A stretch of DNA of 64,000 nucleotides, from IMG/VR virus record IMGVR_UViG_3300025470_000020; one strand, 5' to 3'. Under the pieces are notes generated by a model. That model made no database searches and was not told the DNA's origin. It saw nothing but the letters and a program-made list of their open reading frames with translations. Every line of letters starts with the position of its first letter. The first letter of the stretch is position 1. This DNA comes from an uncultured virus (IMG/VR IMGVR_UViG_3300025470_000020). Lineage: Duplodnaviria; Heunggongvirae; Uroviricota; Caudoviricetes. Both the position numbers and the translations under genes were made by a program. This document shows, piece by piece, positions 13,677-45,142 of this stretch.

Positions 13677-13945
13677 TCTCTAGGTGCTTTTGTTTTGTGA
13701 CCATCTTTGATTGTGTTTTGACCAACTTGTTCTTTCATTCTACCAATAACATACTTCTCAAATGTAGAATCAGCCTTACCTGTGCCAGGTGTATTTAATC
13801 TCATACCGTCAGATAGAATAGGTGTGCCTGAATGATGCCTAATGTGTGTAGGATTATCAATTAAGTATTGGTCTAATTCTGTATAAGACATTTTCTTTTC
13901 AAATATCTCATCTGTTTCTGTATTCTTAAACTCATAGTTGGGCAT
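13670..13945 (-). CDS. FmdB-like small protein
   Basis: MPNYEFKNTET.E.FE..MS..ELD.YL..NP. Confidence 0.6.
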   Translation of the reverse strand: MPNYEFKNTETDEIFEKKMSYTELDQYLIDNPTHIRHHSGTPILSDGMRLNTPGTGKADSTFEKYVIGRMKEQVGQNTIKDGHKTKAPREW

Positions 13946-14495
13946 TATACCACTCCGGAATTGGTCTAGAATTAATTTTTCCTTGCCATGAAGCAAGATG
14001 TGTTTTATTGTTTATATAGTAATTTCTGTAGGACGCCAAAGAATTTCCTGCTATCTTCACCGCATCAGGCATAGCTGGTGTTGGTTCGGTAAAGTTAGCA
14101 TTAGGTATATTCTTTGGTGTGTTCCAAAATAACTTATCAACTAGTCCTATCTGTTCACACTTATGGACTTTACCATAACGATAGGTATATTCTTTACATA
14201 GTTCTTTGAGTAGTTTACTTAACCAGATATAGTTTGAATTACTATGGCGACACCAGATAGCGGATGGATGGTTGATGTGTGTTGCTGAATACAAAATAGT
14301 TTCACGGTCATCAGATAGAATCCAACGCTTAACATTACGATTAGTTTTTGATTTTACAGTTACTTCTTGGCCATCTAATACACGGTGGGCCGTGGATAAA
14401 AGCTGGGAATATTCTAAAATCATTTTTATACAATGTTTATCGTTGTGCATTTGCGCACAAACGGTTTCGTCTTTATCTAGGTAAAATATATTCAT
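13932..14495 (-). CDS. pyrimidine-dimer DNA glycosylase / endonuclease V-like protein
   Basis: MNIFYLD...CAQMHNDKH..KMILE..QLLSTAH...THINHPSAIW...EYTYRYGKVH...AMPD. Confidence 0.8.
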   Translation of the reverse strand: MNIFYLDKDETVCAQMHNDKHCIKMILEYSQLLSTAHRVLDGQEVTVKSKTNRNVKRWILSDDRETILYSATHINHPSAIWCRHSNSNYIWLSKLLKELCKEYTYRYGKVHKCEQIGLVDKLFWNTPKNIPNANFTEPTPAMPDAVKIAGNSLASYRNYYINNKTHLASWQGKINSRPIPEWYNAQL

Positions 14496-14502
14496 AATGT
14501 AA

Positions 14503-14531
14503 AGGATAACACAATACTGCTGTTATGTCAA
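14503..14531 (-). promoter_or_regulatory. sigma70-type promoter TTGACA-N17-TATCCT
   Basis: The -10 ends 7 nt before ATG 14495; no SD sequence. Confidence 0.6.
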
Positions 14532-14533
14532 GT

Positions 14534-17825: not shown

Positions 17826-18139
17826 AAACCGATACTGCTAATAATAAAGCACCTAAGCCTATACGCCAATCAGCTAAAAAGATTAAAATAAATCCAATCA
17901 ATGCTGCTAATAACGGTAAAAATTTAATTTTGATTACTTCCATAATATTCTCCTAATAATTTCTTGAGTAACCATTATTGGTTATCATTTTTGCTTCAAT
18001 AACTGCTTCGTAAATACCATCAGCACACAATGGGATTATTTTATTTTGAAGTGGTAACATAAAACATTTTACCACATCATCATAATAAATTAAACTTTCT
18101 ATATCAATATTTTCCATAATTTCCTCACTTTAACATACC

Positions 18140-18167
18140 ATTATAACACATCTGGACCAAAAGTCAA
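18140..18167 (-). promoter_or_regulatory. early-type promoter (TGC)TTGACT-N16-TATAAT(GG)
   Basis: Same consensus as the 24.9-29.4 kb promoter family. Confidence 0.8.
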
Positions 18168-18175
18168 GCACTATT

Positions 18176-18406
18176 TTAGCTCGTGGAATCGTCTAGGACG
18201 ATTAATTTACCAATACCGACATATTCATCTACGGCATGCTTTAATTGTGTCTTGGAAGTGCTTGGAAGAACAAATGTATACTCAAATTTTGCGTCCACAC
18301 CCTTGTCCGTTAGTGTTTCATTGAGATACTTTACCGCTTGGTAAGCATCATCAAATTCTTTTCTACCATTATTATTATTCAGGTTCGGTTTAGCGATATA
18401 TTTCAT
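18176..18406 (-). CDS. hypothetical protein
   Basis: ORF track. Confidence 0.7.
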   Translation of the reverse strand: MKYIAKPNLNNNNGRKEFDDAYQAVKYLNETLTDKGVDAKFEYTFVLPSTSKTQLKHAVDEYVGIGKLIVLDDSTS

Positions 18407-22341: not shown

Positions 22342-23115
22342 TTATACTTCTATATATTTCAATTTAAATAGGTCATGTTGATATTCTTTTGGATAAGCTC
22401 TTGGGTTACAAATCACTCTTGTTTCACTAATTGTATAATCGAAAGGATCGTGAGTGTGCCCATGAACCCATAACTTAACATCTTTAAATAAGTTCATAAG
22501 ATAATCCAGATTACTATGAAAACCACCGTTCATTATGCTGTCATTTTCATATCGTGGGTGAACAGAATTACGGCTAGGTGAATGGTGTGTTATAACAACT
22601 TTTTTACCTGATAAACTTTCAAGCATTGTTGCAATAAAATCTATACTCTTATTATGTTCTTTAACTGATTGTTCAGGTGAATACTTAATATAATTTTCAC
22701 CATCAAAGTATTTAATAATTCTCCAATCAGGCATTGAAGGCTTAATTAATTCCATTGTATACTTATCAGAATTATTCATATTAGTCCACATGGTTGAACC
22801 AATAAAATTAATATCACCAATTTTGGCCGCTTGATTATTAAGAACACGAATATTATCCAAGTGTTTTAACTTATCTGTGATATCTTTTACCGTGTCATTG
22901 TATAGATAATTATAATGCTCGTGATTACCAACCACATATACAATATCTCTAAACTTTTTTGATATATCTTCAAAAAAATCTATTTTAAAATGCTTTGCTG
23001 AACATATATCGCCAGCTAAAATCAATACATCAGCATTCTCATCATTATTTAATGTGAGGTCTCTATGTTCTAAATGTAAATCACTTGCAATCGCTAACTT
23101 CACAATGTTTTCCAA
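22342..23115 (-). CDS. calcineurin-like metallophosphoesterase
   Basis: SDLHLE, LAGD, GNHE, THHSP and HGHTH motifs. Confidence 0.9.
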   Translation of the reverse strand: MENIVKLAIASDLHLEHRDLTLNNDENADVLILAGDICSAKHFKIDFFEDISKKFRDIVYVVGNHEHYNYLYNDTVKDITDKLKHLDNIRVLNNQAAKIGDINFIGSTMWTNMNNSDKYTMELIKPSMPDWRIIKYFDGENYIKYSPEQSVKEHNKSIDFIATMLESLSGKKVVITHHSPSRNSVHPRYENDSIMNGGFHSNLDYLMNLFKDVKLWVHGHTHDPFDYTISETRVICNPRAYPKEYQHDLFKLKYIEV

Positions 23116-23140
23116 TTCTATTATTAGCCAATAAGATATC

Positions 23141-23272
23141 GGGCAGTATTTAGCCGCCCTCCTGCCAAGTATCGCAGAGATTGCTTACCAAACTCGGTAG
23201 TCCAATTGGCTCGTTACGGTCGATTAACTCGATCCAGTCTGCTCTGGTTACAGGCCTTAACCTACCTGTAAT
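23141..23272 (-). ncRNA. candidate structured RNA (unassigned)
   Basis: GC-rich ORF-free intergenic segment with several nested stems (TTACAGG/CCTGTAA, CAGAG/CTCTG, TACC/GGTA, GGGCGG/CTGCCC). Confidence 0.4.
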
Positions 23273-23276
23273 TAGG

Positions 23277-23471
23277 TTATTTTTTGATTGTATAGTTTTT
23301 AAATATACTGATTAGAATTGATACTGCTAACCAATTTCGCCATGTATAATCAATATACAAGGCAGGAAAGATTGTATCCCATGCCCATATAACAACCAAT
23401 GACCAACATAAGCATAATACTACTAATACTACTGCTGCTGTTATTGCCAATGCCCATTCTATATCTTTCAT
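23277..23471 (-). CDS. hypothetical membrane protein
   Basis: Two hydrophobic segments. Confidence 0.65.
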   Translation of the reverse strand: MKDIEWALAITAAVVLVVLCLCWSLVVIWAWDTIFPALYIDYTWRNWLAVSILISIFKNYTIKK

Positions 23472-24007
23472 TATTGATCCTCCGCCATCATTTCTTTCCA
23501 ATCCTCAGCTATTTGTTCTAGATTGAAATCTTCAACCAGATGCTGAGGTATATTACTCAAGTCCTCATAATCAAGTTCATACGATGCGTCCTGACCGTCA
23601 TAGTATTCACCGACAAATGACATACCTTCTTCAATGTATGTAGCAGAAACATCCCAGCCATGTTCAAACATCCAATGATATAAGTTCGTTGGTGGTGCCC
23701 ATGCCGTTTCACAACTAAAGGTTATGGTGTCACCTTCTCTACGCCAATTATTAGCATCGGCATTCCATTTTGTTCCCCAATTACTGACTGACCAGCTATA
23801 CCAATCAGGTGCACCATACTTCTCTTGCATCTCAGCGGCTAATGCCTCATTACGGTTAGGTGATTCTACATCAACCAATTCTTGTGGGCATGGCATAAAG
23901 AAATCAAACCAATTCTTGCCTTCACCATTCTTTAGAAAAGTTTCTAACCTGTCCATCTTTTCAGGTGTTGCTGTAATGCTAACACTATTTGAGCACCAAT
24001 TTGGCAT
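23471..24007 (-). CDS. YubB/Api92-like ferredoxin-fold (DUF1281-type) protein
   Basis: MPNWCSN...WYSW...NWGTKW...TAWAPP...Y.EEG..F.G. Confidence 0.8.
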   Translation of the reverse strand: MPNWCSNSVSITATPEKMDRLETFLKNGEGKNWFDFFMPCPQELVDVESPNRNEALAAEMQEKYGAPDWYSWSVSNWGTKWNADANNWRREGDTITFSCETAWAPPTNLYHWMFEHGWDVSATYIEEGMSFVGEYYDGQDASYELDYEDLSNIPQHLVEDFNLEQIAEDWKEMMAEDQ

Positions 24008-24008
24008 C

Positions 24009-24413
24009 TTAATTGCCCTCCACTAATTTATAAGGTTTCTTCCAATCGCCGATATTCACATCAACATAATAGGCAGTATTAAAATAATCTATTTGAGCAT
24101 TACTTTCATCATACCAATCAGCTGACTTCATCGCTTTGAATACGGTCTCTAAAAATTCTTTCGCCTTGCCAGAAAAGTGCTGATGATACCAATAAGGGTT
24201 CACATCAACATAACCAGCATCCAAATGAAAGCGATAATCGTTGCCTGTATTTGCTTTAATGTTAGATAGAAAGTCAATCGAGCCTTCTTTAATTGATAGT
24301 TTAATCGTGCTATGGTTTCTAACCGATAATGAACCTTTGATGCCATACTTCTTGAGTATAGGTTTCAAGTTCTCTGCAATTACTTTCTTTTTAGATTGAT
24401 TCATGTAAGCCAT
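24009..24413 (-). CDS. conserved hypothetical phage early protein
   Basis: MAYMNQ..K..I...LK..LKKYG.KGSLSV...D.S..Q.DYF..AYY..VNIG.W.KPY. Confidence 0.75.
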   Translation of the reverse strand: MAYMNQSKKKVIAENLKPILKKYGIKGSLSVRNHSTIKLSIKEGSIDFLSNIKANTGNDYRFHLDAGYVDVNPYWYHQHFSGKAKEFLETVFKAMKSADWYDESNAQIDYFNTAYYVDVNIGDWKKPYKLVEGN

Positions 24414-24434
24414 TTTACTTCTCCCGTTTAGTTT

Positions 24435-24502
24435 ATTTTTAAAGCACACTCGGCATTAAGCCTTTGCTACCAAGAAATTGGATTGGAATGTGCTTTAAAA
24501 AT
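24435..24502. repeat. 14-bp perfect inverted repeat
   Basis: ATTTTTAAAGCACA (24435-24448) and TGTGCTTTAAAAAT (24489-24502). Confidence 0.85.
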
Positions 24503-24530
24503 GGCAGTTTCTTTAATGACTGAGCTGCCA
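24497..24530 (-). terminator. putative Rho-independent terminator
   Basis: Minus strand TGGCAG...CTGCCA followed by TTTTT, downstream of the 24543-24917 ORF. Confidence 0.55.
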
Positions 24531-24542
24531 AAAGTCTTAACA

Positions 24543-24917
24543 TTAAGCAGCGAGAGCTACTTTTTTGTCTTGTGCTACTGGTTTTACCTTAGCAGGTTCA
24601 GCAGCCTTTACCTCAACCTTAGCGGTTGTTGTAACCTTAGCTTTAACTTGCTTGTAACGACCGTTAGCATCAAAAGCATCTGGATTAACCAATTGATAAC
24701 CAGTCACCTTACGACCATCTTTTACAACCTTAACAATGCCACCGTCACGGCGAATATTGTAAATATTGGTTGATAAGCGATATAACACCGCTTCTTGGTC
24801 TGTGCCTTTGAATACTGCTTTGATTTCGTCAGGCGATACTACTTTGCCAGATAAAAGCACTTGCGTGATTTTCTCGTGGCGATTAGTTTTGCCTTTTCTG
24901 ATTTTTAATGTTGCCAT
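24543..24917 (-). CDS. basic winged-HTH-like DNA-binding protein
   Basis: Lys/Arg-rich; YRLSTNIYNIRRDGG.V....DGRKVTGYQL; Ala/Lys-rich tail. Confidence 0.6.
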   Translation of the reverse strand: MATLKIRKGKTNRHEKITQVLLSGKVVSPDEIKAVFKGTDQEAVLYRLSTNIYNIRRDGGIVKVVKDGRKVTGYQLVNPDAFDANGRYKQVKAKVTTTAKVEVKAAEPAKVKPVAQDKKVALAA

Positions 24918-24968
24918 AATATAATACTCCTCAAAATTAATAATAAACTACTCATACTACAATGTACC

Positions 24969-24996
24969 ATTATACACTTTCCACTATAAAAGTCAA
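24969..24996 (-). promoter_or_regulatory. early promoter family TTGACT-N16-TATAAT
   Basis: Minus strand ATGCTTGACTTTT...TATAATGG. Confidence 0.85.
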
Positions 24997-25012
24997 GCAT
25001 TATTTTGGTACT

Positions 25013-25243
25013 TTACCTCATGTATACCGAAAATCTATCGGCAAACATTCTTACGCAATCTTGGTACCTTTGGTTAGGCGACCTTCGATCCAACGGGTTA
25101 GTTCTGCTACCTCTGAACCTCACCCGAATTTTTTTACCTTGAGATTTGAAATAAGCCCTTACCTCATCCAATCGGCGTATTGGTATATTCTTATAACGGG
25201 CTTCTTCACCTTCTACTCTAAATGGTTTTAAGTTCATATTCAC
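25013..25243 (-). CDS. hypothetical basic protein
   Basis: ORF track; RBS GGAG. Confidence 0.7.
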   Translation of the reverse strand: MNMNLKPFRVEGEEARYKNIPIRRLDEVRAYFKSQGKKIRVRFRGSRTNPLDRRSPNQRYQDCVRMFADRFSVYMR

Positions 25244-25245
25244 TC

Positions 25246-25491
25246 CTATGGTCTATAATAAGAATTAGTCCAATTGCCTTCGGGTTCTTCCTCGTAAGCA
25301 AGCGCCTGTATAATATCGTCAAGCACTTCCAACTTGTCCATTGGCATTCTATCACCGTTTAAAAATATCTCACTTCTAACCAGTTCTAAAATAGTCTTTA
25401 CCTCAACCTCGGTTAGTTCTATCTTACGAAGCGAACCGTCATCCAAGTTTCTGGTCTCACCAGTTCTAGTATTCAATGAAAACGCTACCAT
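25246..25491 (-). CDS. hypothetical protein
   Basis: RBS GGAGGT; its own promoter. Confidence 0.75.
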   Translation of the reverse strand: MVAFSLNTRTGETRNLDDGSLRKIELTEVEVKTILELVRSEIFLNGDRMPMDKLEVLDDIIQALAYEEEPEGNWTNSYYRP

Positions 25492-25518
25492 ACTTACCTC
25501 CCTAATTTCAATACAACC

Positions 25519-25546
25519 ATTATATCACATCCATACCAAAAGTCAA
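25519..25546 (-). promoter_or_regulatory. early promoter family TTGACT-N16-TATAAT
   Basis: Read directly. Confidence 0.85.
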
Positions 25547-25558
25547 GCATTATTTAGC

Positions 25559-25945
25559 CTATTCGGTATCGATCCATACTCTACCAAAAATCAATTCGCC
25601 ACCGTTCTTTTTAATAACATAGAAGTCATTAGGAAAATCAATGATATTGCCTAAGTCCTCACGGATTTCGTCCTGATTGATATCCTCAACCTTGATACAA
25701 CCGATTGAACCAGAATCCACAGCATATTCACGACCTTCTTGGTCATTGTAAACACCATCACCATAAGCTGTACCAAAGATAGCAAACTTACGACCATCTT
25801 TTAATGAAAATACACCTTCGCCTGGGTCACCATTGGTTGGATCGAACATTATATTACATGCTTCGTCCCATTCATTGTGCATAACATAGCATAGGTCTCC
25901 CACATAATACTTACCTGCCGGCATCTTATCAACTATCATAATCAA
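25559..25945 (-). CDS. conserved hypothetical protein
   Basis: MPAGKYYVGDLCYV...TAYGDG.Y....VDSG.IG.I. Confidence 0.8.
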   Translation of the reverse strand: MIMIVDKMPAGKYYVGDLCYVMHNEWDEACNIMFDPTNGDPGEGVFSLKDGRKFAIFGTAYGDGVYNDQEGREYAVDSGSIGCIKVEDINQDEIREDLGNIIDFPNDFYVIKKNGGELIFGRVWIDTE

Positions 25946-26108
25946 ATAACCTTCCTATCTTATTAACGATATCCTCATTATAATAATCTGGATCAATGTT
26001 CCGTATAGCATAAAACATATACTCCAACTCATCATAATCCAATTGAACCGTTACCTCTGGTGCATCAGTAGATAACCTCTTTACCTCAAAAATAGTCTTA
26101 CCAGTCAT
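25929..26108 (-). CDS. hypothetical protein (59 aa)
   Basis: Manually read MTGKTIFEVKRLSTDAPEVTVQLDYDELEYM...; RBS GAGGT. Confidence 0.65.
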   Translation of the reverse strand: MTGKTIFEVKRLSTDAPEVTVQLDYDELEYMFYAIRNIDPDYYNEDIVNKIGRLFDYDS

Positions 26109-26140
26109 ATTACTTTACCTCACTTATTATTAATGTTACC

Positions 26141-26168
26141 ATTATATCATATTTGGATAGAATGTCAA
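26141..26168 (-). promoter_or_regulatory. early promoter family TTGACA-N16-TATAAT
   Basis: Read directly. Confidence 0.85.
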
Positions 26169-26186
26169 GCATTATTTGGATACTTT

Positions 26187-26283
26187 TACCTCATTAAAAC
26201 CTGTATAGTACCTCAATAGTCTTACCTCAAGTACCTCAATGATACCTCACGGACTTAGCGAGGCGCCTGCGTGTAATACCTCG
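26187..26283. repeat. cluster of TACCTC(A) direct repeats
   Basis: Copies at 26187, 26209, 26223, 26232, 26243 and 26277 in non-coding DNA. Confidence 0.85.
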
Positions 26284-26385
26284 CCATGGCCTTCGCTGGC
26301 CAGTGCTCCTGTATTGGTGTTAGTTTCTCAGCACGATACCGAAAGTTCCAGAGGTATCCTGAGGAACTTCCGAGCACCTCTGATA

Positions 26386-26532
26386 TTATTTTGTGATAGC
26401 CTTTACATATTCCTTGAAGCCTGCTACTGCTGACTTCTTATCACAAAAATAGAAGCGCATGGATACCAATTGATTATTAATGATATCGGACACCTCTATA
26501 ACACCCGTATTTGGGTTCCGTGTTATAGTCAT
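26386..26532 (-). CDS. hypothetical protein (48 aa)
   Basis: MTITRNPNTGVIEVSDIINNQLVSMRFYF...; RBS TAAGGAG and its own promoter. Confidence 0.75.
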   Translation of the reverse strand: MTITRNPNTGVIEVSDIINNQLVSMRFYFCDKKSAVAGFKEYVKAITK

Positions 26533-26558
26533 TCTTATCTCCTTATTATTAAACTGCT

Positions 26559-26586
26559 ATTATACATGAAATGGCAAAAATGTCAA
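26559..26586 (-). promoter_or_regulatory. early promoter family TTGACA-N16-TATAAT
   Basis: Read directly. Confidence 0.85.
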
Positions 26587-26656
26587 GCACTTTCGAGCGG
26601 ACTATACTATAAGAATAGCACGCAACCTCTGCTCTCCTCTCCAACCGGTAAATACC

Positions 26657-26684
26657 ATTATACACGATCCAATAAAAAAGTCAA
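26657..26684 (-). promoter_or_regulatory. early promoter family TTGACT-N16-TATAAT
   Basis: Read directly; no ORF before the next promoter. Confidence 0.8.
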
Positions 26685-26715
26685 GCACTTTTTGGGGTGC
26701 CTGACTTCTATTTGA

Positions 26716-27432
26716 TTAAGCAGCTAGTGCGATTGGTATGGTTTTCTTGACAAAACCACTGGTGTCCTTCTTAGCCTTGCCCTTCGCCTTGAGACCGGCA
26801 ATAACACCCTTAGGATCAAGGAAGCGAAGGTCGGTGTCATCAGCATTAATCACAGGGAGACCTAGGTACTGCTCTGGTAAGCCCTTATCAAATACTGCTG
26901 CTACATTATAACCTTGCTCGATAGCACGGTAAACATCGTGGTCGTTTCCGTCAGCAGCAGAAAAGGTTAGGTTATAATTGAATGGTACAGTGCGACCGAC
27001 TATTTTGGTGTAATCATAGAATTGGACAGTAGGAAATGCTTCCATCATGTTGCGGTATTGTCCTACTCTGATTTTCTCCCATGCGATATCACTGGTGCCG
27101 TTTAAACGGAATACAGGGATTAATCCCTTCTTTTCAGCATATTTGATGGTGCTCTGTATTTCAAGTGCTAGCTCTTCCATGAATTGCTCACGAGCTTCAA
27201 AAAAGCGCTTGGTTTTACGGATACGGGCTTGCTGAATTACATTGGTATTTTCGCCCTTCTTGAATATACCACCACGGCCTGCTGTATTCAAGCAAGCAGC
27301 TTTACAGCCTGCGGTTGCCTTAGGACAGGTTTGGTGGCCTGATAAGTCAGCAGGTGCTAAATGGAGGATACTGGTTAGGTAGCCCTTCTTTTCGCCCTTC
27401 ATGATTTTTGGATTGCCTCTAGTCAATAACAT
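26716..27432 (-). CDS. GP88-family Cys-rich (radical-SAM-like) protein
   Basis: CPKATAGCKAACL..AGRG, RLNGTSDI.W, QFYDYTK, Y.LTFS, D..DLRFLD. Confidence 0.75.
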   Translation of the reverse strand: MLLTRGNPKIMKGEKKGYLTSILHLAPADLSGHQTCPKATAGCKAACLNTAGRGGIFKKGENTNVIQQARIRKTKRFFEAREQFMEELALEIQSTIKYAEKKGLIPVFRLNGTSDIAWEKIRVGQYRNMMEAFPTVQFYDYTKIVGRTVPFNYNLTFSAADGNDHDVYRAIEQGYNVAAVFDKGLPEQYLGLPVINADDTDLRFLDPKGVIAGLKAKGKAKKDTSGFVKKTIPIALAA

Positions 27433-27459
27433 TTATATCTCCTTATTAATTCAAGTACC

Positions 27460-27487
27460 ATTCTACACTAATTGGCAGGAAAGTCAA
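27460..27487 (-). promoter_or_regulatory. early promoter family TTGACT-N16-TAGAAT
   Basis: Read directly. Confidence 0.8.
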
Positions 27488-27548
27488 GCACTATTTTTGG
27501 TCATAAAACGGTCATATTGGAGCTAGCACGCAGGGGCGGTGTGGAACC

Positions 27549-27576
27549 ATTATATCATATCCAAGGGGAAAGTCAA
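27549..27576 (-). promoter_or_regulatory. early promoter family, left half of a back-to-back pair
   Basis: TTGACT-N16-TATAAT. Confidence 0.85.
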
Positions 27577-27600
27577 GCACTATTTGGGGCTAAAAAATGC

Positions 27601-27628
27601 TTGACTTTTGGTAGGAATCATGTATAAT
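27601..27628 (+). promoter_or_regulatory. early promoter family, right half of a back-to-back pair
   Basis: TTGACT-N16-TATAAT. Confidence 0.85.
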
Positions 27629-27656
27629 GGTAACATAATGACAAAGGAGATAAAAA

Positions 27657-27842
27657 ATGCAATTATACCACTTTCATGTATTGAATAACATCTATGATGT
27701 GGAGGCACCCGATGCTGGCTCAGCCATGCAATGGATGAACCGTCAGGTTATGGATGCCTTAAACATGGGGCCATATGCTTGGATGGATATGCCTATGCTT
27801 GAAAATTCATACTATTGTAGCCCTGGCGATTATTTCAATTAA
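27657..27842 (+). CDS. hypothetical protein
   Basis: RBS AAGGAG; its stop overlaps the next promoter repeat. Confidence 0.75.
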   Translation: MQLYHFHVLNNIYDVEAPDAGSAMQWMNRQVMDALNMGPYAWMDMPMLENSYYCSPGDYFN

Positions 27843-27845
27843 TGC

Positions 27846-27873
27846 TTGACTTTTTTGCCAGTTCTGATATAAT
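27846..27873 (+). promoter_or_regulatory. early promoter family TTGACT-N16-TATAAT
   Basis: Read directly. Confidence 0.85.
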
Positions 27874-27900
27874 GGTAACATAATGAATAAGGAGAAAAAT

Positions 27901-28224
27901 ATGACGGTTTTAGGATTTTGTAAGGTTTTAGGTGAGGTTATCGAGGACAATTATGCTGCCAAGTGGACTCATAATGTATTGAAGATTGATATCCAAGAAG
28001 GCAAGCGCTTTTATAAGCTTGTCCGCCATGACTATGATGTGGAGACAGGCCAATTGGTTAAGTTTTCAGGCTCTGTCCACTGCTTCGTGGAGAAGGCGAC
28101 TGGCGATATCTATAAGGCAGCTAGCTTTAAAGCCCCTGCCAAGGGTGTCCGTTTCAATATCGTTAAGGATCTAGAATTATTGAAGGAAATCGCTGATTGG
28201 GCAGGTGGCTATCTATACCGCTAA
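27901..28224 (+). CDS. conserved phage early hypothetical protein
   Basis: GKRFYKLV...SVHCFVEKATGDIYKAASFKAPAKGVRFNI...ADWAGGYLY; RBS TAAGGAG. Confidence 0.8.
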   Translation: MTVLGFCKVLGEVIEDNYAAKWTHNVLKIDIQEGKRFYKLVRHDYDVETGQLVKFSGSVHCFVEKATGDIYKAASFKAPAKGVRFNIVKDLELLKEIADWAGGYLYR

Positions 28225-28232
28225 AATAATGC

Positions 28233-28260
28233 TTGACTTTTGGTATGGATATGTTAGGAT
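28233..28260 (+). promoter_or_regulatory. early promoter family TTGACT-N16-TAGGAT
   Basis: Read directly. Confidence 0.75.
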
Positions 28261-28269
28261 GGCTACACT

Positions 28270-28356
28270 ATGAATAATTTAATAACACTTTTAATAGGGC
28301 TCTGGATCGGACTAGTAATAATAACCATCGGGCTCTATATTTTGGAGAGAAAATAA
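28270..28356 (+). CDS. single-TM micro-protein (28 aa), near-leaderless
   Basis: MNNLITLLIGLWIGLVIITIGLYILERK; ATG 9 nt after the -10 box. Confidence 0.6.
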   Translation: MNNLITLLIGLWIGLVIITIGLYILERK

Positions 28357-28357
28357 A

Positions 28358-28561
28358 ATGGCTAAGTTTACAGTAAGGCTACCAAAATTGGTAGAGTTTA
28401 TCGAGACCGAGGTTCATACAATCGAGGCTGACTCTGCTGAAGAGGCAATGGAAATAGTAATGAATTCTAGTGGAGATCCAAATGTCCTCTATGAGGAAGA
28501 CGGATGGGAAACTAGGGAAGTGTGGTATCATGATATGGAAGCAGAGGAGATTAAAGCATGA
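28358..28561 (+). CDS. small acidic hypothetical protein
   Basis: TIEADSAEEAME motif; RBS GGAG. Confidence 0.75.
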   Translation: MAKFTVRLPKLVEFIETEVHTIEADSAEEAMEIVMNSSGDPNVLYEEDGWETREVWYHDMEAEEIKA

Positions 28562-28851
28562 GCAAATTATTAGCAGTTCTATTATTATCAGTCTCCATCG
28601 GGGCTCAGGCTCACGATGGGTTCAGAGGCGGATATGGCGGTGGGTACCATCATGGCGGTGGTAACAATTGGATCGCTCCAGCTATTATAGGGGGCATCGT
28701 AGGATATGAGCTTAATCGCTCTTATGGATACAATGCTAATCCCTACGTTGGCCAGTTCGGTCGAGGTTGCCGCCCCATCTATCAGACCGTATGGGCTCCA
28801 AACGGATTCGGTGGAGTGGTTCCGTTTCAGCAGTATTTGGGCTGTAATTAA
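28558..28851 (+). CDS. secreted Gly-rich protein
   Basis: Signal peptide MSKLLAVLLLSVSIGAQA; G/H-rich tract; WIAPAIIGGIVGY. Confidence 0.75.
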   Translation: MSKLLAVLLLSVSIGAQAHDGFRGGYGGGYHHGGGNNWIAPAIIGGIVGYELNRSYGYNANPYVGQFGRGCRPIYQTVWAPNGFGGVVPFQQYLGCN

Positions 28852-28858
28852 GCCCCCT

Positions 28859-28886
28859 ATTATATCACATCTGGCAATAAAGTCAA
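28859..28886 (-). promoter_or_regulatory. early promoter family, antisense-facing
   Basis: TTGACT-N16-TATAAT pointing back into the plus-strand genes. Confidence 0.75.
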
Positions 28887-28911
28887 GCCCCCTAGGCCCC
28901 CTAGATTTCGC

Positions 28912-28939
28912 TTGACTTTTTCATTGGTTTCTGTATAAT
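28912..28939 (+). promoter_or_regulatory. early promoter family TTGACT-N16-TATAAT
   Basis: Read directly; no ORF before the next promoter. Confidence 0.8.
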
Positions 28940-29019
28940 GGACACCATTGGTAAGGCAGCAATTAATCTGGTCTTCTAATCCACCCCTGGTCGTCTTCCA
29001 TAGGGGGCTAAAATTCTGC

Positions 29020-29047
29020 TTGACATTCCATCCATTTTCTGTATAAT
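29020..29047 (+). promoter_or_regulatory. early promoter family TTGACA-N16-TATAAT
   Basis: Read directly. Confidence 0.85.
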
Positions 29048-29075
29048 GGAACATAATTGATAAGGAGATAAAAAA

Positions 29076-29405
29076 ATGAGTATGTTAGTAATCGATACGC
29101 AAGACCAAGAAAATTATGCCGCCCACCAAGGTTTCACTGGTGACTACCGCTGGAAAATGAAGGGTGGTCAATCCTACAAAATCACTAACATTCCACAAGG
29201 CGTGGACCCAGCTGAGGTTGTGGAGATGGTTCGCTTGGACATCGAGGAGAATAACAATTTCTTCCGCTCAGACATTATCGGATACTCCCTCCAAGCGGAT
29301 GACTGGATGTCTCCATTTGAAAAGAGCCAGCTCGAATACGAAGGCGAGATCCGCTATGCCGAACCCACCATTGATTATCGAGATTATTTAGCAGAAATCG
29401 CTTAA
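29076..29405 (+). CDS. conserved hypothetical protein
   Basis: LVI.TQ..ENY.AH......WK.KGG..Y...FEKSQLEYEG.I; RBS TAAGGAG. Confidence 0.8.
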   Translation: MSMLVIDTQDQENYAAHQGFTGDYRWKMKGGQSYKITNIPQGVDPAEVVEMVRLDIEENNNFFRSDIIGYSLQADDWMSPFEKSQLEYEGEIRYAEPTIDYRDYLAEIA

Positions 29406-29411
29406 TAATGC

Positions 29412-29439
29412 TTGACTTTTGGCATGGATGTGTTATCCT
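29412..29439 (+). promoter_or_regulatory. early promoter family TTGACT-N16-TATCCT
   Basis: Read directly. Confidence 0.75.
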
Positions 29440-29466
29440 AGCCATACAATTAAAAAGGAGAAAAAT

Positions 29467-29736
29467 ATGACTGAAAAAGAAAAATTAGATTGGGAATTAC
29501 AAGCTTACGGATGCTCTAAAGCGTCCCTTATGAGAATGGTAAAAGAGCAAGCCTTCCCAGGCACAGAGCTCATGTTCGCAGCTGGTATCCTATCAGATGC
29601 ACAGGAAATCATCAGCGCTGAATTCAACGAGGACGGCTGGGTATCTCCAGACCAAGCGAATCAAGCTAGACAGTTCCTCAATCGTGCTAAATGCATCATG
29701 TTCAACTTGATGGAATCCAGAAAGGAGCCTGTATGA
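29467..29736 (+). CDS. hypothetical protein
   Basis: RBS AAGGAG; ILSDAQE...ARQFLNRAK. Confidence 0.75.
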   Translation: MTEKEKLDWELQAYGCSKASLMRMVKEQAFPGTELMFAAGILSDAQEIISAEFNEDGWVSPDQANQARQFLNRAKCIMFNLMESRKEPV

Positions 29737-30029
29737 GAATCGAAAAGCTATCTTCAGCAGGAGGCACTTCCCTCCAAGGCGAAGTCTATACGGACTATGA
29801 TACACTGGTGGCAGCCTTCGGTGAACCATCCTACGGTCCAGATGAGGACCCATCCGATAAGGTGACCTGTGAATGGGTGCTAGAAATCGATGGCACGGTG
29901 GTGACCATATACGACTGGAAGGAATACGGTGATACCCCTAGGCACTATTATGACTGGCACATTGGCGGGTATGATAGAAGAGCAGTGGACAAGGTTGAAT
30001 CAATAATTAGGGAGGTAGAAAATGCTTAA
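29733..30029 (+). CDS. conserved hypothetical protein
   Basis: GTSLQG...Y..LV..FGEP...DKV..EW....TIYDWK...WHIGG. Confidence 0.8.
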   Translation: MRIEKLSSAGGTSLQGEVYTDYDTLVAAFGEPSYGPDEDPSDKVTCEWVLEIDGTVVTIYDWKEYGDTPRHYYDWHIGGYDRRAVDKVESIIREVENA

Positions 30030-30153
30030 AGGACTATTAATTGGTATTGTATTAGGATTGGTAATAAAATATGCTGTATCGGACTCTAGGTGGTTTCAGC
30101 ATGATGAATTCGCTGAGTTCAAATCAACGAGCTCATTCGAGCAGTTCAAATAG
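30022..30153 (+). CDS. small membrane-anchored protein (43 aa)
   Basis: MLKGLLIGIVLGLVIKY...; RBS GGAGGT. Confidence 0.65.
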   Translation: MLKGLLIGIVLGLVIKYAVSDSRWFQHDEFAEFKSTSSFEQFK

Positions 30154-30185
30154 TTTTATCGGCGTCTAGTCAGCGCCACTCTCCG

Positions 30186-30215
30186 GAGGTGTCCATTGGG
30201 GCACCTCTTTTTTTT
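30186..30215 (+). terminator. Rho-independent terminator closing the plus-strand early block
   Basis: GAGGTGTCC-ATTG-GGGCACCTC followed by T8. Confidence 0.85.
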
Positions 30216-30299
30216 GGAGGCGGCTTAAGAATCGCTATGTGTCCTATAAAAAAAAGCCATCCATGGTCGGACTCTGAATTCAGTAACTTTTTTTCTAGC

Positions 30300-30599
30300 C
30301 TATTTTTTTGTGGAATCGAAATTTTTTCCGGAGGGTTTTCGTGTTCCCTTAATTTTTTCCTGGAGGTCTATAATCTCCAAGTCTTTATCGGCTAATTGAA
30401 CCTTGAGCGTTTGAATCACTTCATTAGACATTATCAGTTTAGTTTCTAATTCATCTACAGACTTTACCACGGAGTCTATTCTAGTCACTTCATCAATATA
30501 ATTATTATGATATTCTGAGCCATAGTACCAAATCATCGCTATTAATATAACGATTAATCCCAATAATACGTCATCTTTACCTATTTTAATTTTGTCCAT
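30300..30599 (-). CDS. hypothetical membrane-anchored coiled-coil protein
   Basis: ORF track; N-terminal TM. Confidence 0.65.
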   Translation of the reverse strand: MDKIKIGKDDVLLGLIVILIAMIWYYGSEYHNNYIDEVTRIDSVVKSVDELETKLIMSNEVIQTLKVQLADKDLEIIDLQEKIKGTRKPSGKNFDSTKK

Positions 30600-30841
30600 C
30601 TGTATCCTCTTTCAATCTCTTCTTTAGTCCAACCATCATATTTTATCAGATTTCTCTTCCATCTCTTATAATCTGATAGTAAGTAAGCAAAAGTACCACC
30701 AGGAAACTTAGGAACTTCTTCTTTTATCATAGCATCTTTTTTATCGTGTTCAAGCCATAAAATATACACAACACATACAATAAAAAAGGCGGATATCAGA
30801 GGCCAAGGTAGATTATAATTGAATATATTAAAATTATCCAT
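30581..30841 (-). CDS. hypothetical membrane protein
   Basis: ORF track; TM segment. Confidence 0.65.
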   Translation of the reverse strand: MDNFNIFNYNLPWPLISAFFIVCVVYILWLEHDKKDAMIKEEVPKFPGGTFAYLLSDYKRWKRNLIKYDGWTKEEIERGYRWTKLK

Positions 30842-31052
30842 TTTTATCCTCTAGAAATTTAAGTCGCTTTCTTAAAAAACTCACATCTTCTTGTAGAGAT
30901 ACCACTTGATTTGTCTTGATATACAGTTCATGACGGACTTCATCATCTATTTTTTCAAATAATTTCTGCCTATCTTTACTTTTCCAATCATGGGTTACAT
31001 TAATACCTATCAGGATACCCATGATAAAGAAAACTATGCACATAACAATCAT
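30834..31052 (-). CDS. hypothetical membrane-anchored protein
   Basis: ORF track; RBS GGAG. Confidence 0.65.
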   Translation of the reverse strand: MIVMCIVFFIMGILIGINVTHDWKSKDRQKLFEKIDDEVRHELYIKTNQVVSLQEDVSFLRKRLKFLEDKNG

Positions 31053-31070
31053 ATATTCTTCTCCAAATTA

Positions 31071-31334
31071 TCACAAGCCAATCACAAATCTTGATGAATC
31101 ATACTTATGAATATGCTTACAGTCTAATTTTTTGATATATTTCTTGTAAGCATCTGGTTCCATGTAAAATTGTAAGACATCTTTTAAGGACATAGCGAGT
31201 TTTATCTCTTCCTTGTCTTCTTTATACTTGAGAGCGACTTCGAGTTGTCTTTGGAGTTCTCCCACGATGATGCATTCCATCTGGATATCTGTAAGTTGTA
31301 TAGAAAATGTGTTAGAAATGTGTTTGGAAGTCAT
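31071..31334 (-). CDS. hypothetical protein
   Basis: Start corrected to MTSKH at 31334. Confidence 0.6.
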   Translation of the reverse strand: MTSKHISNTFSIQLTDIQMECIIVGELQRQLEVALKYKEDKEEIKLAMSLKDVLQFYMEPDAYKKYIKKLDCKHIHKYDSSRFVIGL

Positions 31335-31505
31335 ATTTTTGTCTTTTAAAAGTCTTTTTTGAATCCCGGAGTGCAACGGACAAATTCTCCAGTCTGAATT
31401 TGACTGGAATCCTTTGAGGTTATGCACGTTTTCTCAAGAGATGAGCATCCGGTAAGTAGGAGGAATAGGAAAATCGTTGGAAACGCTGGAAAAACTGTAA
31501 GGAAT

Positions 31506-31695: not shown

Positions 31696-32019
31696 TTAGT
31701 GTAGTTTAGGGAATGCTCGTAGGTTGTCTTCGTGTCTTACGATATCAGTTTCTTCAACAAAATCATCAAATATCATAACCACATTTTCTTCGGTGACAAT
31801 CCAATAGTCTTCGTCTTCAAATTTAGTTTGTGAAGCAGTTTGCCAGTTAGGAAGAATAGCATCACCTACTCTAACCTCTTTAACAGTATTACCTACAGCA
31901 ACCACACGGCCTTTTTGTGCCTCGGCTGGGTCATTAGATGATAGGATAATACCAGATTGTGTCTTTAAGTTTCTTTCAATCAGTTTTACAATAATTTTAT
32001 CGCCAATCGGTCTTAACAT
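31696..32019 (-). CDS. groES: co-chaperonin GroES (Cpn10)
   Basis: LRPIGDKIIV...KTQSGIIL...GRVVAVG....V.VGD. Confidence 0.9.
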   Translation of the reverse strand: MLRPIGDKIIVKLIERNLKTQSGIILSSNDPAEAQKGRVVAVGNTVKEVRVGDAILPNWQTASQTKFEDEDYWIVTEENVVMIFDDFVEETDIVRHEDNLRAFPKLH

Positions 32020-33512: not shown

Positions 33513-33513
33513 A

Positions 33514-35950: not shown

Positions 35951-36628
35951 CTATTGGTATACCTCAAGCTCATATGATTGCTCACGGTATTGTTTGAATG
36001 TCTTTTGGTATCTTTTAATAAGTGGTGATAATTCTTCATAATTGATACCAAATTCTTCAATTAAAAATTTCTTTGGTTCGGTAGATAGGTATGCTTGAAT
36101 TTCATCCATAATAACTTTGGTATTATAACCAAGTTTTATTAAATGCTTACGAATGATTTGGTATTGTTTCTTATGCTTACTCAATAGCCTATGTGTTAAA
36201 ATGTCCATATCAACCTTATATAAGGTTTCAGTATAATAATGAGCATGCGCCATTTCATGCCTATATGCAGTCTTATCCGTCTTTAATGAACCAATGACAT
36301 AAAACTTTTCATTCCAATTGACCTTCTCTTTGATTTTATCAATTAGTTCTTTTTCTTTAGGTGTCCATTCTTTTTGTGGATTTAATTTAATCCATTCTTT
36401 AAGAATATAATCCGGAAAGTTAAAGCCTGTCCAAAAATTGAAGTAATTTAAATTACCCATGTTATCCATAGATTCAATTAAGAAATCATATACCGAAAAC
36501 TTTTTGCCTACTAGGCCTTCTAATGGTGATTCATAATATTCTTGAATACGGAAAAAGGTTGTAGTAATCTCTTTGCGAGTATCAAATTCAAAATGAATAA
36601 TATTACTACTTGGTTTATAGGCTATCAT
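35951..36628 (-). CDS. hypothetical HExxH (zincin-like) protein
   Basis: FFRIQEYYESP...W.GFNFP...HEMAH...DEIQAY. Confidence 0.65.
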   Translation of the reverse strand: MIAYKPSSNIIHFEFDTRKEITTTFFRIQEYYESPLEGLVGKKFSVYDFLIESMDNMGNLNYFNFWTGFNFPDYILKEWIKLNPQKEWTPKEKELIDKIKEKVNWNEKFYVIGSLKTDKTAYRHEMAHAHYYTETLYKVDMDILTHRLLSKHKKQYQIIRKHLIKLGYNTKVIMDEIQAYLSTEPKKFLIEEFGINYEELSPLIKRYQKTFKQYREQSYELEVYQ

Positions 36629-36960
36629 CTTCGCATCCTTGAAATGTCTTCAGCGTCTTTTTGTTGAAATACAGGAACACTATTACTCTTGTGCATAGTA
36701 GCAACACCTAACATGGCATCACCTGTATATTGAACAGGGGCTTTCTTTGTAGCTACACCAACTTCCATATTTAAAGATGGATAGTGTGGTGTTTCTCTAC
36801 GAAATGGTGGGATTTTTTTGAGTTCACGAGTGGCAACAATCTGTTTTGGAGCATGAGATTTTAACCATGCTACATATTGTTCGTGTTTTTGTTTGTTTGG
36901 TTTCTTTGGTTTAGACTTGGGTGTTCTCATGTGTATAATCATAGTATAATCCTTCATCAT
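36625..36960 (-). CDS. conserved hypothetical protein of T4-like phages
   Basis: YTG..M.GVATMHKSN.VPVF....A.DISRMRR. Confidence 0.75.
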   Translation of the reverse strand: MMKDYTMIIHMRTPKSKPKKPNKQKHEQYVAWLKSHAPKQIVATRELKKIPPFRRETPHYPSLNMEVGVATKKAPVQYTGDAMLGVATMHKSNSVPVFQQKDAEDISRMRR

Positions 36961-43653: not shown

Positions 43654-44135
43654 GTATTCGCCTTTTCTCCGTATTTCCAAATTTCGTTTTTGTATTCTTC
43701 TGACCAGTAATCGTAATATTTTGTTTTCTTTAAACTCTCACGAGCACTTAATAATTTATCTCTTGATTGGGCAAGTATTATTGGATAATGACCATTACCT
43801 GTGTTTACTCCATTAATAAAACCAGGATCTGCTGGATGGTCTTTTAAAAAGATTAAGTCATCTCTTTTTGCCTGTAGCTTACTTATTAAATCTAATAGCT
43901 CATCATTCGTGAATTTATTAATCGTATTAACAAAAATAATTAGCTCAAAATCATAAATAGAATTAAAAGTTTTTATGTATGAGAGTATATATGATTCCGG
44001 TTCTTCATTAAACTCGGTTACAAAAACTTTTTTATCTTGAAATGCTTTTTTAGCAAATGGACATATTTGAAATCCACCAAGTTCATCTCTTTTCTCGGAG
44101 ATTCTTTTTATCCAATTAGCTAGTTCTTTTTCCAA
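43650..44135 (-). CDS. hypothetical protein (DUF1415-like)
   Basis: ICPFAK...DHP...L..ARE.L....YYDYW. Confidence 0.6.
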   Translation of the reverse strand: MEKELANWIKRISEKRDELGGFQICPFAKKAFQDKKVFVTEFNEEPESYILSYIKTFNSIYDFELIIFVNTINKFTNDELLDLISKLQAKRDDLIFLKDHPADPGFINGVNTGNGHYPIILAQSRDKLLSARESLKKTKYYDYWSEEYKNEIWKYGEKANT

Positions 44136-45133
44136 TTTACAAACTCCATTTTTGCTCGTAGGTTTTGGAAAGTATTGTCTTTAATAATATCTAGCAATTC
44201 ATCTTGTGTAAATCCAGATTTGATAATATCATTAACATCTTTTTCTGTTATATATTTTGGCCAAATAACGACATTGAAATGCTCGTCAATTGATTTCTCC
44301 ATCTTCTTTACAATTTCTTTATTTCTTGGTTCATTATCATATATCAATACGACTTTACTCTTGTCAAATGTGTCCAAAATTGATTCCAGATTAGAATCCG
44401 CAGTTGCTACACAGTTGTCTATAAACAATGAATCAATTGGACCTTCTACAACATAGATTGGTAGTAAATCATTAATTACTCTATCAAGACCATACACCTT
44501 TTTATTATTATCTTGAAGTTTACAAGTAATATATCTTAATTTAGATTCACCTAATGCTCTTCCTTGGAAAGCAATTAGATTTTTATCTTTATCATAAAAT
44601 GGAATGACCAATCGTTTATCATTATCAATTAAATCTTTTTCTAAACCCAAATCTTTTACAAATGATTTAAAGTCTTCCGCATAATATAGTTGTGTGTGAA
44701 AGTGTTTTGGTATTTGTCTGCCAATAACATATTTTTTGGCAAAATGTTCATCTGGTAATGAATCGATGGATGGTAAATTGATTGATTTTTTAAATGTTGG
44801 TGTTGCCGTTTTGAATTCTTCAAATTGTGGTTTTGGATAATTGTTGTTGCCTGTTTCTCCATTTTTATATCTTTCCATTGTGTATTCAGCAACAAGAGAT
44901 GGATCAACTTGCTTTAGAAAATTGTAGAATGTGGTACTAACACCACAATTATGGCACATATAGAAATAATCATTCTTCTTTCTAAACACATAGCCACGAG
45001 ATTTAGTTTTGTTTTTTGTAGAATCGCCACATAGAGGACATCTGAAATTATAAAGGTCGTCCTTCTTTTTGGTAAACCTTATTAATTTTGGCGATGCACG
45101 AAGCAGGAATTGTCTGTCAATAAAAATACTCAT
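44120..45133 (-). CDS. 61: DNA primase gp61
   Basis: CPLCGDS...CHNCG zinc finger; FQGRAL; VEGPIDSLF; DNEPRN; KDVND. Confidence 0.96.
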   Translation of the reverse strand: MSIFIDRQFLLRASPKLIRFTKKKDDLYNFRCPLCGDSTKNKTKSRGYVFRKKNDYFYMCHNCGVSTTFYNFLKQVDPSLVAEYTMERYKNGETGNNNYPKPQFEEFKTATPTFKKSINLPSIDSLPDEHFAKKYVIGRQIPKHFHTQLYYAEDFKSFVKDLGLEKDLIDNDKRLVIPFYDKDKNLIAFQGRALGESKLRYITCKLQDNNKKVYGLDRVINDLLPIYVVEGPIDSLFIDNCVATADSNLESILDTFDKSKVVLIYDNEPRNKEIVKKMEKSIDEHFNVVIWPKYITEKDVNDIIKSGFTQDELLDIIKDNTFQNLRAKMEFVNWKKN

Positions 45134-45142
45134 AATGTAAGG

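Follow-up and report, generated by a model that had tools for sequence, protein, structure and literature searches.

A dense array of host-type promoter modules in an uncultured freshwater T4-like phage and the probable turnover of its small genes by whole cassettes

Introduction

Why would a phage place a near-consensus, host-type promoter of one design in front of small gene after small gene, and does this promoter take part in the coming and going of the genes behind it? The question is raised by a block at positions 24,960 to 30,215 of a 64,000-nucleotide stretch of DNA from an uncultured virus of the Caudoviricetes (IMG/VR record IMGVR_UViG_3300025470_000020; this whole stretch is referred to here as the window), in which 14 copies of a promoter module are arrayed on both strands. 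We consider it probable that the block is a hyperplastic early-gene region of a T4-like phage, in which a standard module accompanies each small gene and in which turnover proceeds by whole cassettes. A sequence-only reading of the window had described the block as a cassette array, and comparison with relatives bears this out: they differ from the window by whole cassettes, and some of the junctions lie inside the promoter module.

Results

A standard promoter module recurs throughout the block

All 14 motif copies that the sequence-only reading had listed were recovered in place. The string GCTTGACWTT occurs exactly 15 times in the window, namely in these 14 copies and at 18160-18169 on the minus strand, outside the block. 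The strict pattern TTGACWTTT-N10-16-TATAAT was matched nine times against 0.03 matches expected, a number that none of 100 shuffles reached. A hidden Markov model built from the 14 copies detects 15 sites in the window (27.6-41.9 bits), followed by a next-best site of 14.2 bits; in 77 loci of relatives, the best site found with the same model scores 22.7 bits.

The module, about 75 nt long, consists of an A-rich stretch, then TGCTTGACTTT and, beyond a spacer of 16 nt, TATAATGG; behind these come a short leader, a Shine-Dalgarno (SD) sequence and an ATG. The -35 region has the form (A/G)TGCTTGAC(T/A)TT and is preceded by an AT-rich region with the consensus AAAtA.TG before CTTGAC; the spacer measures 16 nt in every one of the 14 copies, with the loose consensus GG.ATGGAT.TG. 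An exact TGCTTGAC is present in 12 of the 14 copies and an exact TATAATGG in nine. When scored against TTGACA/TATAAT, 11 copies fit at 11 or 12 of the 12 positions and one more at 10, and two copies possess weak -10 boxes (TAGGAT in module 28232 and TATCCT in module 29411). Near-consensus promoters reach a density of one per 375 bp. The stop codon of the preceding gene lies 0-13 nt before TGCTTGAC in five of the 14 copies and 26 nt before it in one more, and an SD sequence and a start codon follow 26-51 nt past the -10 box in nine.

Nine modules drive open reading frames (ORFs) that bear an SD sequence, one abuts an ATG, one is antisense and three (26685, 27577 and 28911) are "empty" tandem promoters, with just the next promoter ahead of them, 89-108 nt on. 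The ATG of 28270..28356, which encodes a 28-amino-acid (aa) membrane peptide kept in the close relative L260 (see below), is found about 9 nt past the -10 box of module 28232. Modules stand back to back at two junctions, 27577(-)/27600(+) and 28887(-)/28911(+). The first of these is the divergence of genes that had been placed near 27585, and the proposed T8 terminator at the right end is likewise present as a hairpin at 30185-30208 followed by T8. The rightward arm, which begins at 27600, ends at this terminator (30216); the leftward arm continues into the leftward-transcribed genome. The features of the array, with each module named after one of its coordinates, are:

18133..18180, minus strand: fifteenth module copy, outside the block; 38.5 bits; SD and ATG at 18117
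24963..25009, minus strand: module 24997, driving gene 24543..24917; 33.8 bits; TTGACT-16-TATAAT; SD and ATG 51 nt past the -10 box
25513..25559, minus strand: module 25547, driving 25246..25491 and 25013..25243; 37.3 bits; SD and ATG at 25491
26132..26179, minus strand: module 26169, driving 25929..26108 and 25559..25945; 35.1 bits; 12 of 12 consensus positions
26549..26599, minus strand: module 26587, driving 26386..26532; 32.1 bits; 12 of 12 consensus positions
26594..26652, minus strand: empty unit of 59 nt between the tandem promoters 26685 and 26587; apparent site of cassette turnover
26653..26698, minus strand: module 26685, with only a 7-codon frame before the next promoter; 40.7 bits
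26716..27432, minus strand: gene of the GP88 family, 238 aa (PF17338, E = 3e-45)
27452..27500, minus strand: module 27488 with a TAGAAT -10 box, driving the GP88 gene; 36.8 bits; ortholog in L260 87% identical
27542..27590, minus strand: module 27577, left half of the divergent junction, empty unit; 41.9 bits
27587..27638, plus strand: module 27600, right half of the divergent junction, driving 27657..27842; 36.9 bits
27657..27867, plus strand: cassette of a 61-aa gene and the next promoter, not in L260 (gap 27656-27900 in the global alignment)
27836..27883, plus strand: module 27845, driving the DUF7717 gene 27901..28224 (PF24835, E = 4e-26); 37.3 bits
28220..28270, plus strand: module 28232 (TAGGAT), abutting the ATG of 28270..28356, then 28358..28561 and 28558..28851; 35.3 bits
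28358..28561, plus strand: 67-aa acidic gene whose presence varies among close relatives, with promoter-free junctions
28856..28890, minus strand: promoter 28887, antisense to 28558..28851; 27.6 bits; no SD or ORF within 370 nt
28899..28946, plus strand: module 28911, empty unit; 30.0 bits; next promoter 108 nt on
29006..29053, plus strand: module 29019, driving 29076..29405 (109 aa, acidic); 29.3 bits
29399..29449, plus strand: module 29411 (TATCCT), driving 29467..29736, 29733..30029 and 30022..30153; 31.6 bits
30185..30216, plus strand: intrinsic terminator at the end of the rightward arm; 10-pair stem with six G-C pairs, T8

A close relative differs by whole cassettes

The metagenome contig L260 is 87.6% identical to the window over 6796 aligned nt, and its GP88 protein shares 93% amino-acid identity; in IMG/VR and the metagenome collection, no close variants were found besides L259 and L260. 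For the comparison of L260 with the window, we counted events of at least 50 nt, which number six, four of them in the array and two outside it. L260 possesses an extra tandem promoter unit of 83 nt at 26578 (event 1). It lacks 27657-27867, a gene with its following module (event 2), and the 27600-type promoter and leader run straight into the homolog of the next gene, the joint falling precisely in the leader and SD sequence that are shared; the placement of the corresponding alignment gap is ambiguous inside the repeated module. Gene 28358..28561 is missing, with promoter-free junctions at start codons (event 3). About 75 nt stand in place of 28865-29402 (event 4), a segment that contains the second divergent pair, an empty unit, promoter 29019 and gene 29076..29405, and whose right edge is the upstream edge of module 29411. 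Outside the array, module-free deletions cover 30626-30743 (event 5) and 30842-31077, the latter removing gene 30834..31052 (event 6).

As to the expectation that breakpoints would fall within the promoter repeat, three of the four events in the array touch a module, and the fourth and both events outside do not, numbers too small to support statistics. What appears to carry weight for an involvement of the modules is the sequence detail of events 1 and 2, not the counts. In addition, the promoter that L260 possesses at the position of module 29411 is identical, from GCTTGAC to ATG, to the first rightward promoter of L260 and is 93% like window module 27600. This indicates an exchange of modules.

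Lake variants fill the empty promoter unit

Variant contigs from the sequencing runs X12, X15 and X24 (other lake data sets), mostly 90-99% alike and representing variants of 95-97% identity, were aligned to the window. All three runs possess about 360 nt between promoters 26685 and 26587, as against 59 nt in the window, and this stretch contains a further promoter copy; 34 nt of it match, on the opposite strand, the 27845 promoter. The contigs of run X11, which closely match the window, do not contain such a joint at 26594-26652. This site exists in three states in three lineages: the unit may be empty, doubled but still empty, or filled by a cassette; because variants fill it, the empty tandem unit looks like a scar of cassette turnover. 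Elsewhere in the array, record 24 of run X24 skips 200 nt including gene 28358..28561, with 3 nt shared at the junction, and in X24 the 22 nt just after the SD and ATG of module 29411 are replaced by 190 other letters.

A GC-rich non-coding spacer of 215 nt (26170-26385) contains five SD-like TGAGGTA repeats on the minus strand and has no match in Rfam; it may be the debris of repeated cassette junctions. In run X15, 745 nt stand for the 410-nt stretch 26243-26652 of the window.

Modules probably resemble each other through function and are weak homology units

We compared 40 modules (15 from the window, eight from L260 and 17 from G002, a more distant 57-kb relative) at 33 non-core positions. 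Identity at these positions is 0.40 among the modules of the window and 0.475 among those of G002; in comparisons across genomes, the window reaches 0.40 with G002 and 0.44 with L260. Orthologous modules, paired by position, agree at 0.80-0.93. We rejected a concerted evolution of the modules, the identity within the window being at the level found between genomes, and in the absence of any sign of it, the likeness of the modules is best regarded as a functional consensus. Patches of less than 50 bp have been argued to suffice for recombination in T4, according to the section of PMC2839356 cited here; recombination at short patches of the modules is thus possible, yet as far as their sequences tell, they would be poor substrates. 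The promoter itself, proposed as the unit of homology, is a weak one and the proposal is not supported in its original form: some junctions lie inside a module, but the stretches of identity are short and there are promoter-free indels.

Several observations weigh against the reading of the block as a region that turns over by promoter-bearing cassettes. Over 105 pairs of window modules, the longest exact run that two of them share is 11 nt in the median and 27 nt at most. Modules make up about a quarter of the array, so that three of four events touching them is, by our estimate, statistically compatible with chance, and this count taken alone is not significant. The indels that are free of promoters, namely gene 28358..28561 and both large ones in the 4.5 kb to the right, imply that ordinary illegitimate or microhomology events also remodel the region. 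Each event may have been a gain or a loss, and L260 and the variant runs are assemblies, in which repeats are prone to assembler error; the window modules, however, share at most 27 exact nt. Among 160 loci with GP88 homologs (1.32 Mb), 130 contain no module hit, 26 contain one to three and four contain at least eight; these four are the window's own phage (three loci) and L260, and dense arrays are therefore lineage-specific rather than general in the clade. Finally, the early timing of these sigma-70-type sites is something that we infer from T4, and this analogy is its basis.

The same data bear on the explanation that comes next to be considered, in which the promoters are alike only because every small early gene requires a strong host-type promoter of its own, have no role in recombination, and the indels are products of ordinary illegitimate recombination in a region that tolerates change. 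Such an explanation is in keeping with the non-core identities, with the pairing of orthologous modules by position, with the three of six large indels that have no promoter at their junctions, and with the occurrence of the general consensus TTGAC-N17-TATAATGG before core genes such as CobT in relatives. Against it speak the joining of the 27600 module of L260 to the next gene exactly in the shared leader and SD, the module exchange to which the L260 promoter at the 29411 site points, and the three states of the tandem-promoter site 26594-26652. We regard it as unlikely, and promoter-mediated recombination as plausible, from the junction sequences, for some events, not for all.

Base composition and gene products of the array

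The higher GC content of the block, which had been noticed by eye, is real: the block has 41.7% GC and the remainder of the window 33.3%. The GC content at third codon positions (GC3) is 0.425 in the block (15 ORFs) versus 0.235 elsewhere (90 ORFs; Mann-Whitney p = 3e-9), and the genes that flank the block have intermediate values of 0.31-0.39. G002 likewise shows a GC3 of 0.38 in its array and 0.26 in its core genes. For GP88, GC3 is 0.43 in the window versus 0.23-0.34 in nine syntenic relatives, there near their CobT; over 161 GP88 loci it extends from 0.22 to 0.62 (5th-95th percentile), with locus GC contents of up to 0.49. Given this spread of GP88 GC3 and of locus GC, the GC excess of the array would fit an exchange with GC-richer phages; the GC3 excess could also reflect early genes tuned to the codon pool of the host.

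GP88 is the one widely conserved gene of the block, with a dN/dS ratio of 0.08 in comparison with L260. Among the 14 genes shared with L260, dN/dS lies between 0.08 and 0.43 in 13, the 28-aa gene having no synonymous change; by this measure, the shared genes are real and under purifying selection. At the curated Pfam cut-off, two of 18 proteins were matched (GP88 and DUF7717); PHROGs matched five of the 18, all to families of unknown function, and NCBIfam none of 15 island proteins. For the 124-aa protein, no sequence in the PDB matched below E = 0.04, both proteins searched in the ESM Atlas fell into phage-only "hypothetical" clusters, and a confident model of the 29076 family (predicted local distance difference test score of 91, 14-row alignment) found no fold match at E <= 0.001 in PDB or BFVD. 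These family, structure and fold searches yielded no function for any island protein, and five of the 15 island proteins had no homolog in any fetched locus. Nine of 16 small proteins are acidic, with isoelectric points of 4.1-4.8, which is compatible with an early host-directed role and is not evidence for it.

Distant relatives and the exchange of genes

The core genes of G002 are syntenic with those of the window at amino-acid identities of 70% (exonuclease), 65% (GP88) and 43% (CobT). A loose pattern detects 19 modules in G002 and a strict pattern 17, within 13 kb, and the same divergent junction is present just upstream of GP88; only five genes of array and flanks are common to G002 and the window, and their order differs. 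A scan of IMG/VR with the strict pattern returned 84 stretches, and records with at least three matches were limited to the window's own phage and G002. We fetched 78 CobT loci. Apart from those of the phage itself, their CobT proteins have 49-60% amino-acid identity over the full length, and up to 74% in a few short fragments. These loci contain scattered, co-directional TTGAC-N17-TATAATGG promoters before core genes, and none contains a dense array of the island variant. In 21 of the 78, CobT has a GP88-family gene downstream on its own strand. In nine loci, the interval between the two genes consists mostly of co-directional small ORFs, with four opposite-strand ORFs in L040 only, and few genes of this interval are common to the window and its relatives.

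Individual array genes recur elsewhere in other surroundings. Three sets of loci that we located through the promoter pattern, L140, L164 (with L104 and L117) and L122, contain homologs of 27883, 29076, 29467 and 25559 (37-69% identity) that flank a divergent promoter pair in other combinations of arms. As in the window, 29076 and 29467 are neighbours in L140 and L164; there, 25559 lies on their arm and 27883 on the opposite one. In a phage locus of 45% GC (L229, 10763-12185), a CobS homolog (75%) is directly followed by a homolog of 24543..24917 (80% amino-acid identity), which suggests a recent exchange across a 12-point gap in GC. The GP88 proteins most like that of the window (71-76% amino-acid identity) belong to a differently arranged group (L220, L293, L246, L238 and others, at about 6001-7600), in which the next gene after GP88 is a homolog of window gene 36625..36960 and not one of the window's neighbours; GP88 itself therefore moved between contexts.

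A wholesale origin of the block, as a foreign GC-rich island or mobile element that integrated into an AT-rich phage, would explain its GC and GC3 and also the rightward arm, which runs opposite to its neighbours and has a terminator of its own. We nevertheless consider this very improbable: no integrase, transposase or flanking repeat was found (18 proteins scanned for families), GP88 occupies the same place and strand in 21 of the relatives' 78 loci, the layout recurs in G002 and L260 with other genes, the flanking genes are intermediate in GC3, and content varies cassette by cassette.

The reading of the block as a hyperplastic region with cassette turnover leaves room for an extension that we put forward tentatively. 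The array might be an exchange hub between T4-like phages of about 33% GC and GC-richer ones (up to 45-49%) that inhabit the same lakes, with the module as a portable adapter and the GC3 excess as a record of how recently a gene arrived. The 80% homolog of 24543 in the 45%-GC phage and the wide GC range of GP88 loci would fit such a hub and do not prove it. If it were true, the module would make an incoming gene expressible at once in either phage.

The relatives L017 (15918), L043 (15706), L068 (15246) and L024 (17200) share a promoter with a terminator-like hairpin and a T-run about 20 nt behind it; a conserved small gene, with a product that starts MN..LS..ELK.LL, lies downstream. The promoter-hairpin combination may be an attenuator or may give a very short RNA. 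The string YTGCGTGY was rejected as a motif of the window, where it has three copies against 2.5 expected; it is a cross-genome curiosity at most.

Promoters without a gene

Four of the 14 promoters have no ORF (the three empty ones and the antisense one), and with the density of near-consensus promoters given above this recalls a suggestion of the sequence-only reading, that the array may also act as a sink for host RNA polymerase. To an explanation in which the array is mainly such a sink or decoy and the promoters outweigh the genes we attach very little credence, since the downstream genes are under purifying selection and an empty unit is filled in variants, in the manner of a scar. The transcripts of the three empty units, moreover, fold no better than their shuffles (z = 1.01, 0.14 and -0.34), so that no structured RNA was found in them.

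Antisense promoter 28887 (28800-28890, minus strand) would yield an RNA antisense to 28558..28851, a Gly-rich gene with a signal peptide; the first 54 nt of this RNA fold at z = -3.06, and the element is missing in L260. At 27520-27545 on the minus strand, directly past the -10 box of module 27577, which is the first leftward one at the divergent junction, stands the string CCAC.CC.CCCCTGCGTG. It is kept in the window and in L260 and occurs twice in G002; sites are also given by 7830-7850 and 7975-7990 of L177, and a similar GCGCCTGCGTGACGCC follows a promoter in L082; from its position and conservation, CCAC.CC.CCCCTGCGTG could be an operator or leader element.

A reading of the modules as T4-style middle promoters, in which the TGCTT that precedes and overlaps the -35 box in 12 of the 14 copies would be a MotA-type box, is hardly credible, as the modules have a full TTGAC(T/A) -35 box and the distance between the end of TGCTT and the -10 box is 18 nt, versus about 12 nt for a Mot box. 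MotA and AsiA families had no match in G001, G002 and G005, records that are 17-43% complete and in which the control also matched nowhere. A precedent for such a box is provided by the PmSL elements with a Mot box of phage nt-1, as described in the part of PMC4122927 cited here.

The phage and the remainder of the window

The window encodes a gp32-type single-stranded DNA-binding protein, a tail tube cap protein, CobS, CobT, ribonucleotide reductase and primase, and also gp53, a T4 baseplate protein, gp59, the gp33 late coactivator, Cpn10 and a SegE-type endonuclease. On account of these T4-like core genes, it can be assigned with confidence to an uncultured freshwater T4-like myovirus; the sequencing runs that contain the stretch are freshwater and lake metagenomes. 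The nearest cultured relatives are cyanomyoviruses, with a CobT identity of at most 35%. No close DNA match to the island was found in cultured phages, and the sole match of the flank to them covers 232 nt in the ribonucleotide reductase gene. The 64 kb contain no tRNA gene, and a search of 23000-31500 against Rfam (E up to 5) gave just two sub-threshold sR38 rows.

The T4-type late box TATAAATA is present in three copies in these AT-rich 64 kb, all on the minus strand (2863-2870, 12273-12280 and 55876-55883), and each of the three has a gene start (2834, 12260 and 55852) 13-36 nt downstream. Taken together with the gp33 gene, these boxes before gene starts point to a T4-like late mode that would exist beside the host-type promoters. 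Two promoters on the minus strand, at 14495-14532 and 45133-45172, have the form TTGACAT-N17-TATCCT, and 7 nt behind them stands ...TTACATTATGA, the start of gene 13932..14495 and of the primase gene 44120..45133; either leaderless initiation or a translational operator common to both genes could account for this. The TATCCT variant of the -10 box is common to both of these promoters and module 29411.

Other genes of the window include a SegE-type GIY-YIG homing endonuclease (39183-39623, minus strand) adjoining the gene for the small subunit of ribonucleotide reductase, and an ORF with a TnsA-like endonuclease N-domain (2810-3307, plus strand) that lies on the opposite strand inside the baseplate cluster. 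Auxiliary genes encode a GARS (PurD-like) ATP-grasp protein (14855-16174), a Cpn10/GroES-like co-chaperonin (31696-32019) and a MazG-like pyrophosphohydrolase (33258-33533), all on the minus strand.

Discussion

A model for the array

In the model that we favor, each small gene would be equipped with an A-rich stretch, a near-consensus sigma-70-type -35/-10 pair with a 16-nt spacer, a leader, an SD sequence and an ATG. By analogy to T4, unmodified host RNA polymerase would read these modules upon entry of the phage, and the array genes may have a role in host takeover or anti-defence, as the sequence-only reading had proposed. Turnover would proceed by cassettes: genes, with or without their module, would be inserted, deleted, replaced and moved between arms and between phages, with many of the junctions, not all, in the short identical patches of the modules and with the "empty" tandem promoters as the scars of such events. 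The similarity of the promoters would reflect selection for fit to one polymerase rather than recent mutual copying, and the higher GC3 would be in keeping with genes drawn from a pool common to GC-richer lake phages. In practical terms, the array yields a strong-promoter consensus for a lake host and 16 small genes, nine of them acidic, as candidates for early host-directed functions.

Comparison with known systems

Clusters of small early genes behind strong early promoters form the host-takeover module of phage SPO1, to which the sequence-only reading had likened the block. A likeness to the early promoters of T4 is seen in the use of host-polymerase promoters with additional conserved positions (an upstream A-tract and bases flanking the -35 and -10 boxes) and in a phage that also has a gp33-dependent late mode. 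The consensus found here, TGCTTGACTTT / TATAATGG, differs from that of T4 and from the strings quoted in PMC4122927.

The closest resemblance is to the PeSL elements of T4-type phages. In the sections of PMC4122927 and PMC2839356 cited here, a PeSL (promoter-early stem-loop) begins with a stem-loop terminator, and just behind it come an AT-rich stretch, a sigma-70-like early promoter, an SD sequence and an ATG; PeSLs cluster in hyperplastic regions and adjoin indels between close relatives such as RB49/phi1, PST/T4 and nt-1/KVP40 (Arbiol 2010; Comeau 2014; PMC2839356; PMC4122927). The modules of the window share with them the composite repeat of AT-rich stretch, near-perfect sigma-70 promoter, SD and ATG, the clustering in a T4-like hyperplastic region beside ORFans, the "degraded" or tandem elements at hot spots and, as far as the few events compared suggest, the insertions, deletions and replacements between close relatives at or near the elements. 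The resemblance to PeSLs proposed by the sequence-only reading thus extends to promoter, AT-rich region, SD/ATG and location, but not to the stem-loop. Only one of 15 upstream 60-nt regions folds at z < -2, a terminator scan gave only the hairpin at 30185 and a few weak sites, and the array therefore has no stem-loop or terminator upstream of its promoters. It differs furthermore in its spacer of 16 nt (17 nt in PeSLs), in elements on both strands around two back-to-back junctions, in its distinctly higher GC3 and in its phage, a member of an uncultured freshwater clade whose cultured kin are cyanomyoviruses at 35% CobT identity; in the cyanophage S-PM2, the density of PeSLs is low according to the part of PMC4503421 cited here.

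Judged from its sequence, the array would work like a PeSL array and, because the stem-loop is absent, not be a strict member of that class; a stem-loop is evidently not needed for arrays of this kind. The shuffling of promoter cassettes, known from cultured T4-type phages of enterobacteria and vibrios, would thereby be extended to a freshwater clade that stands nearer to the cyanophage-type myoviruses.

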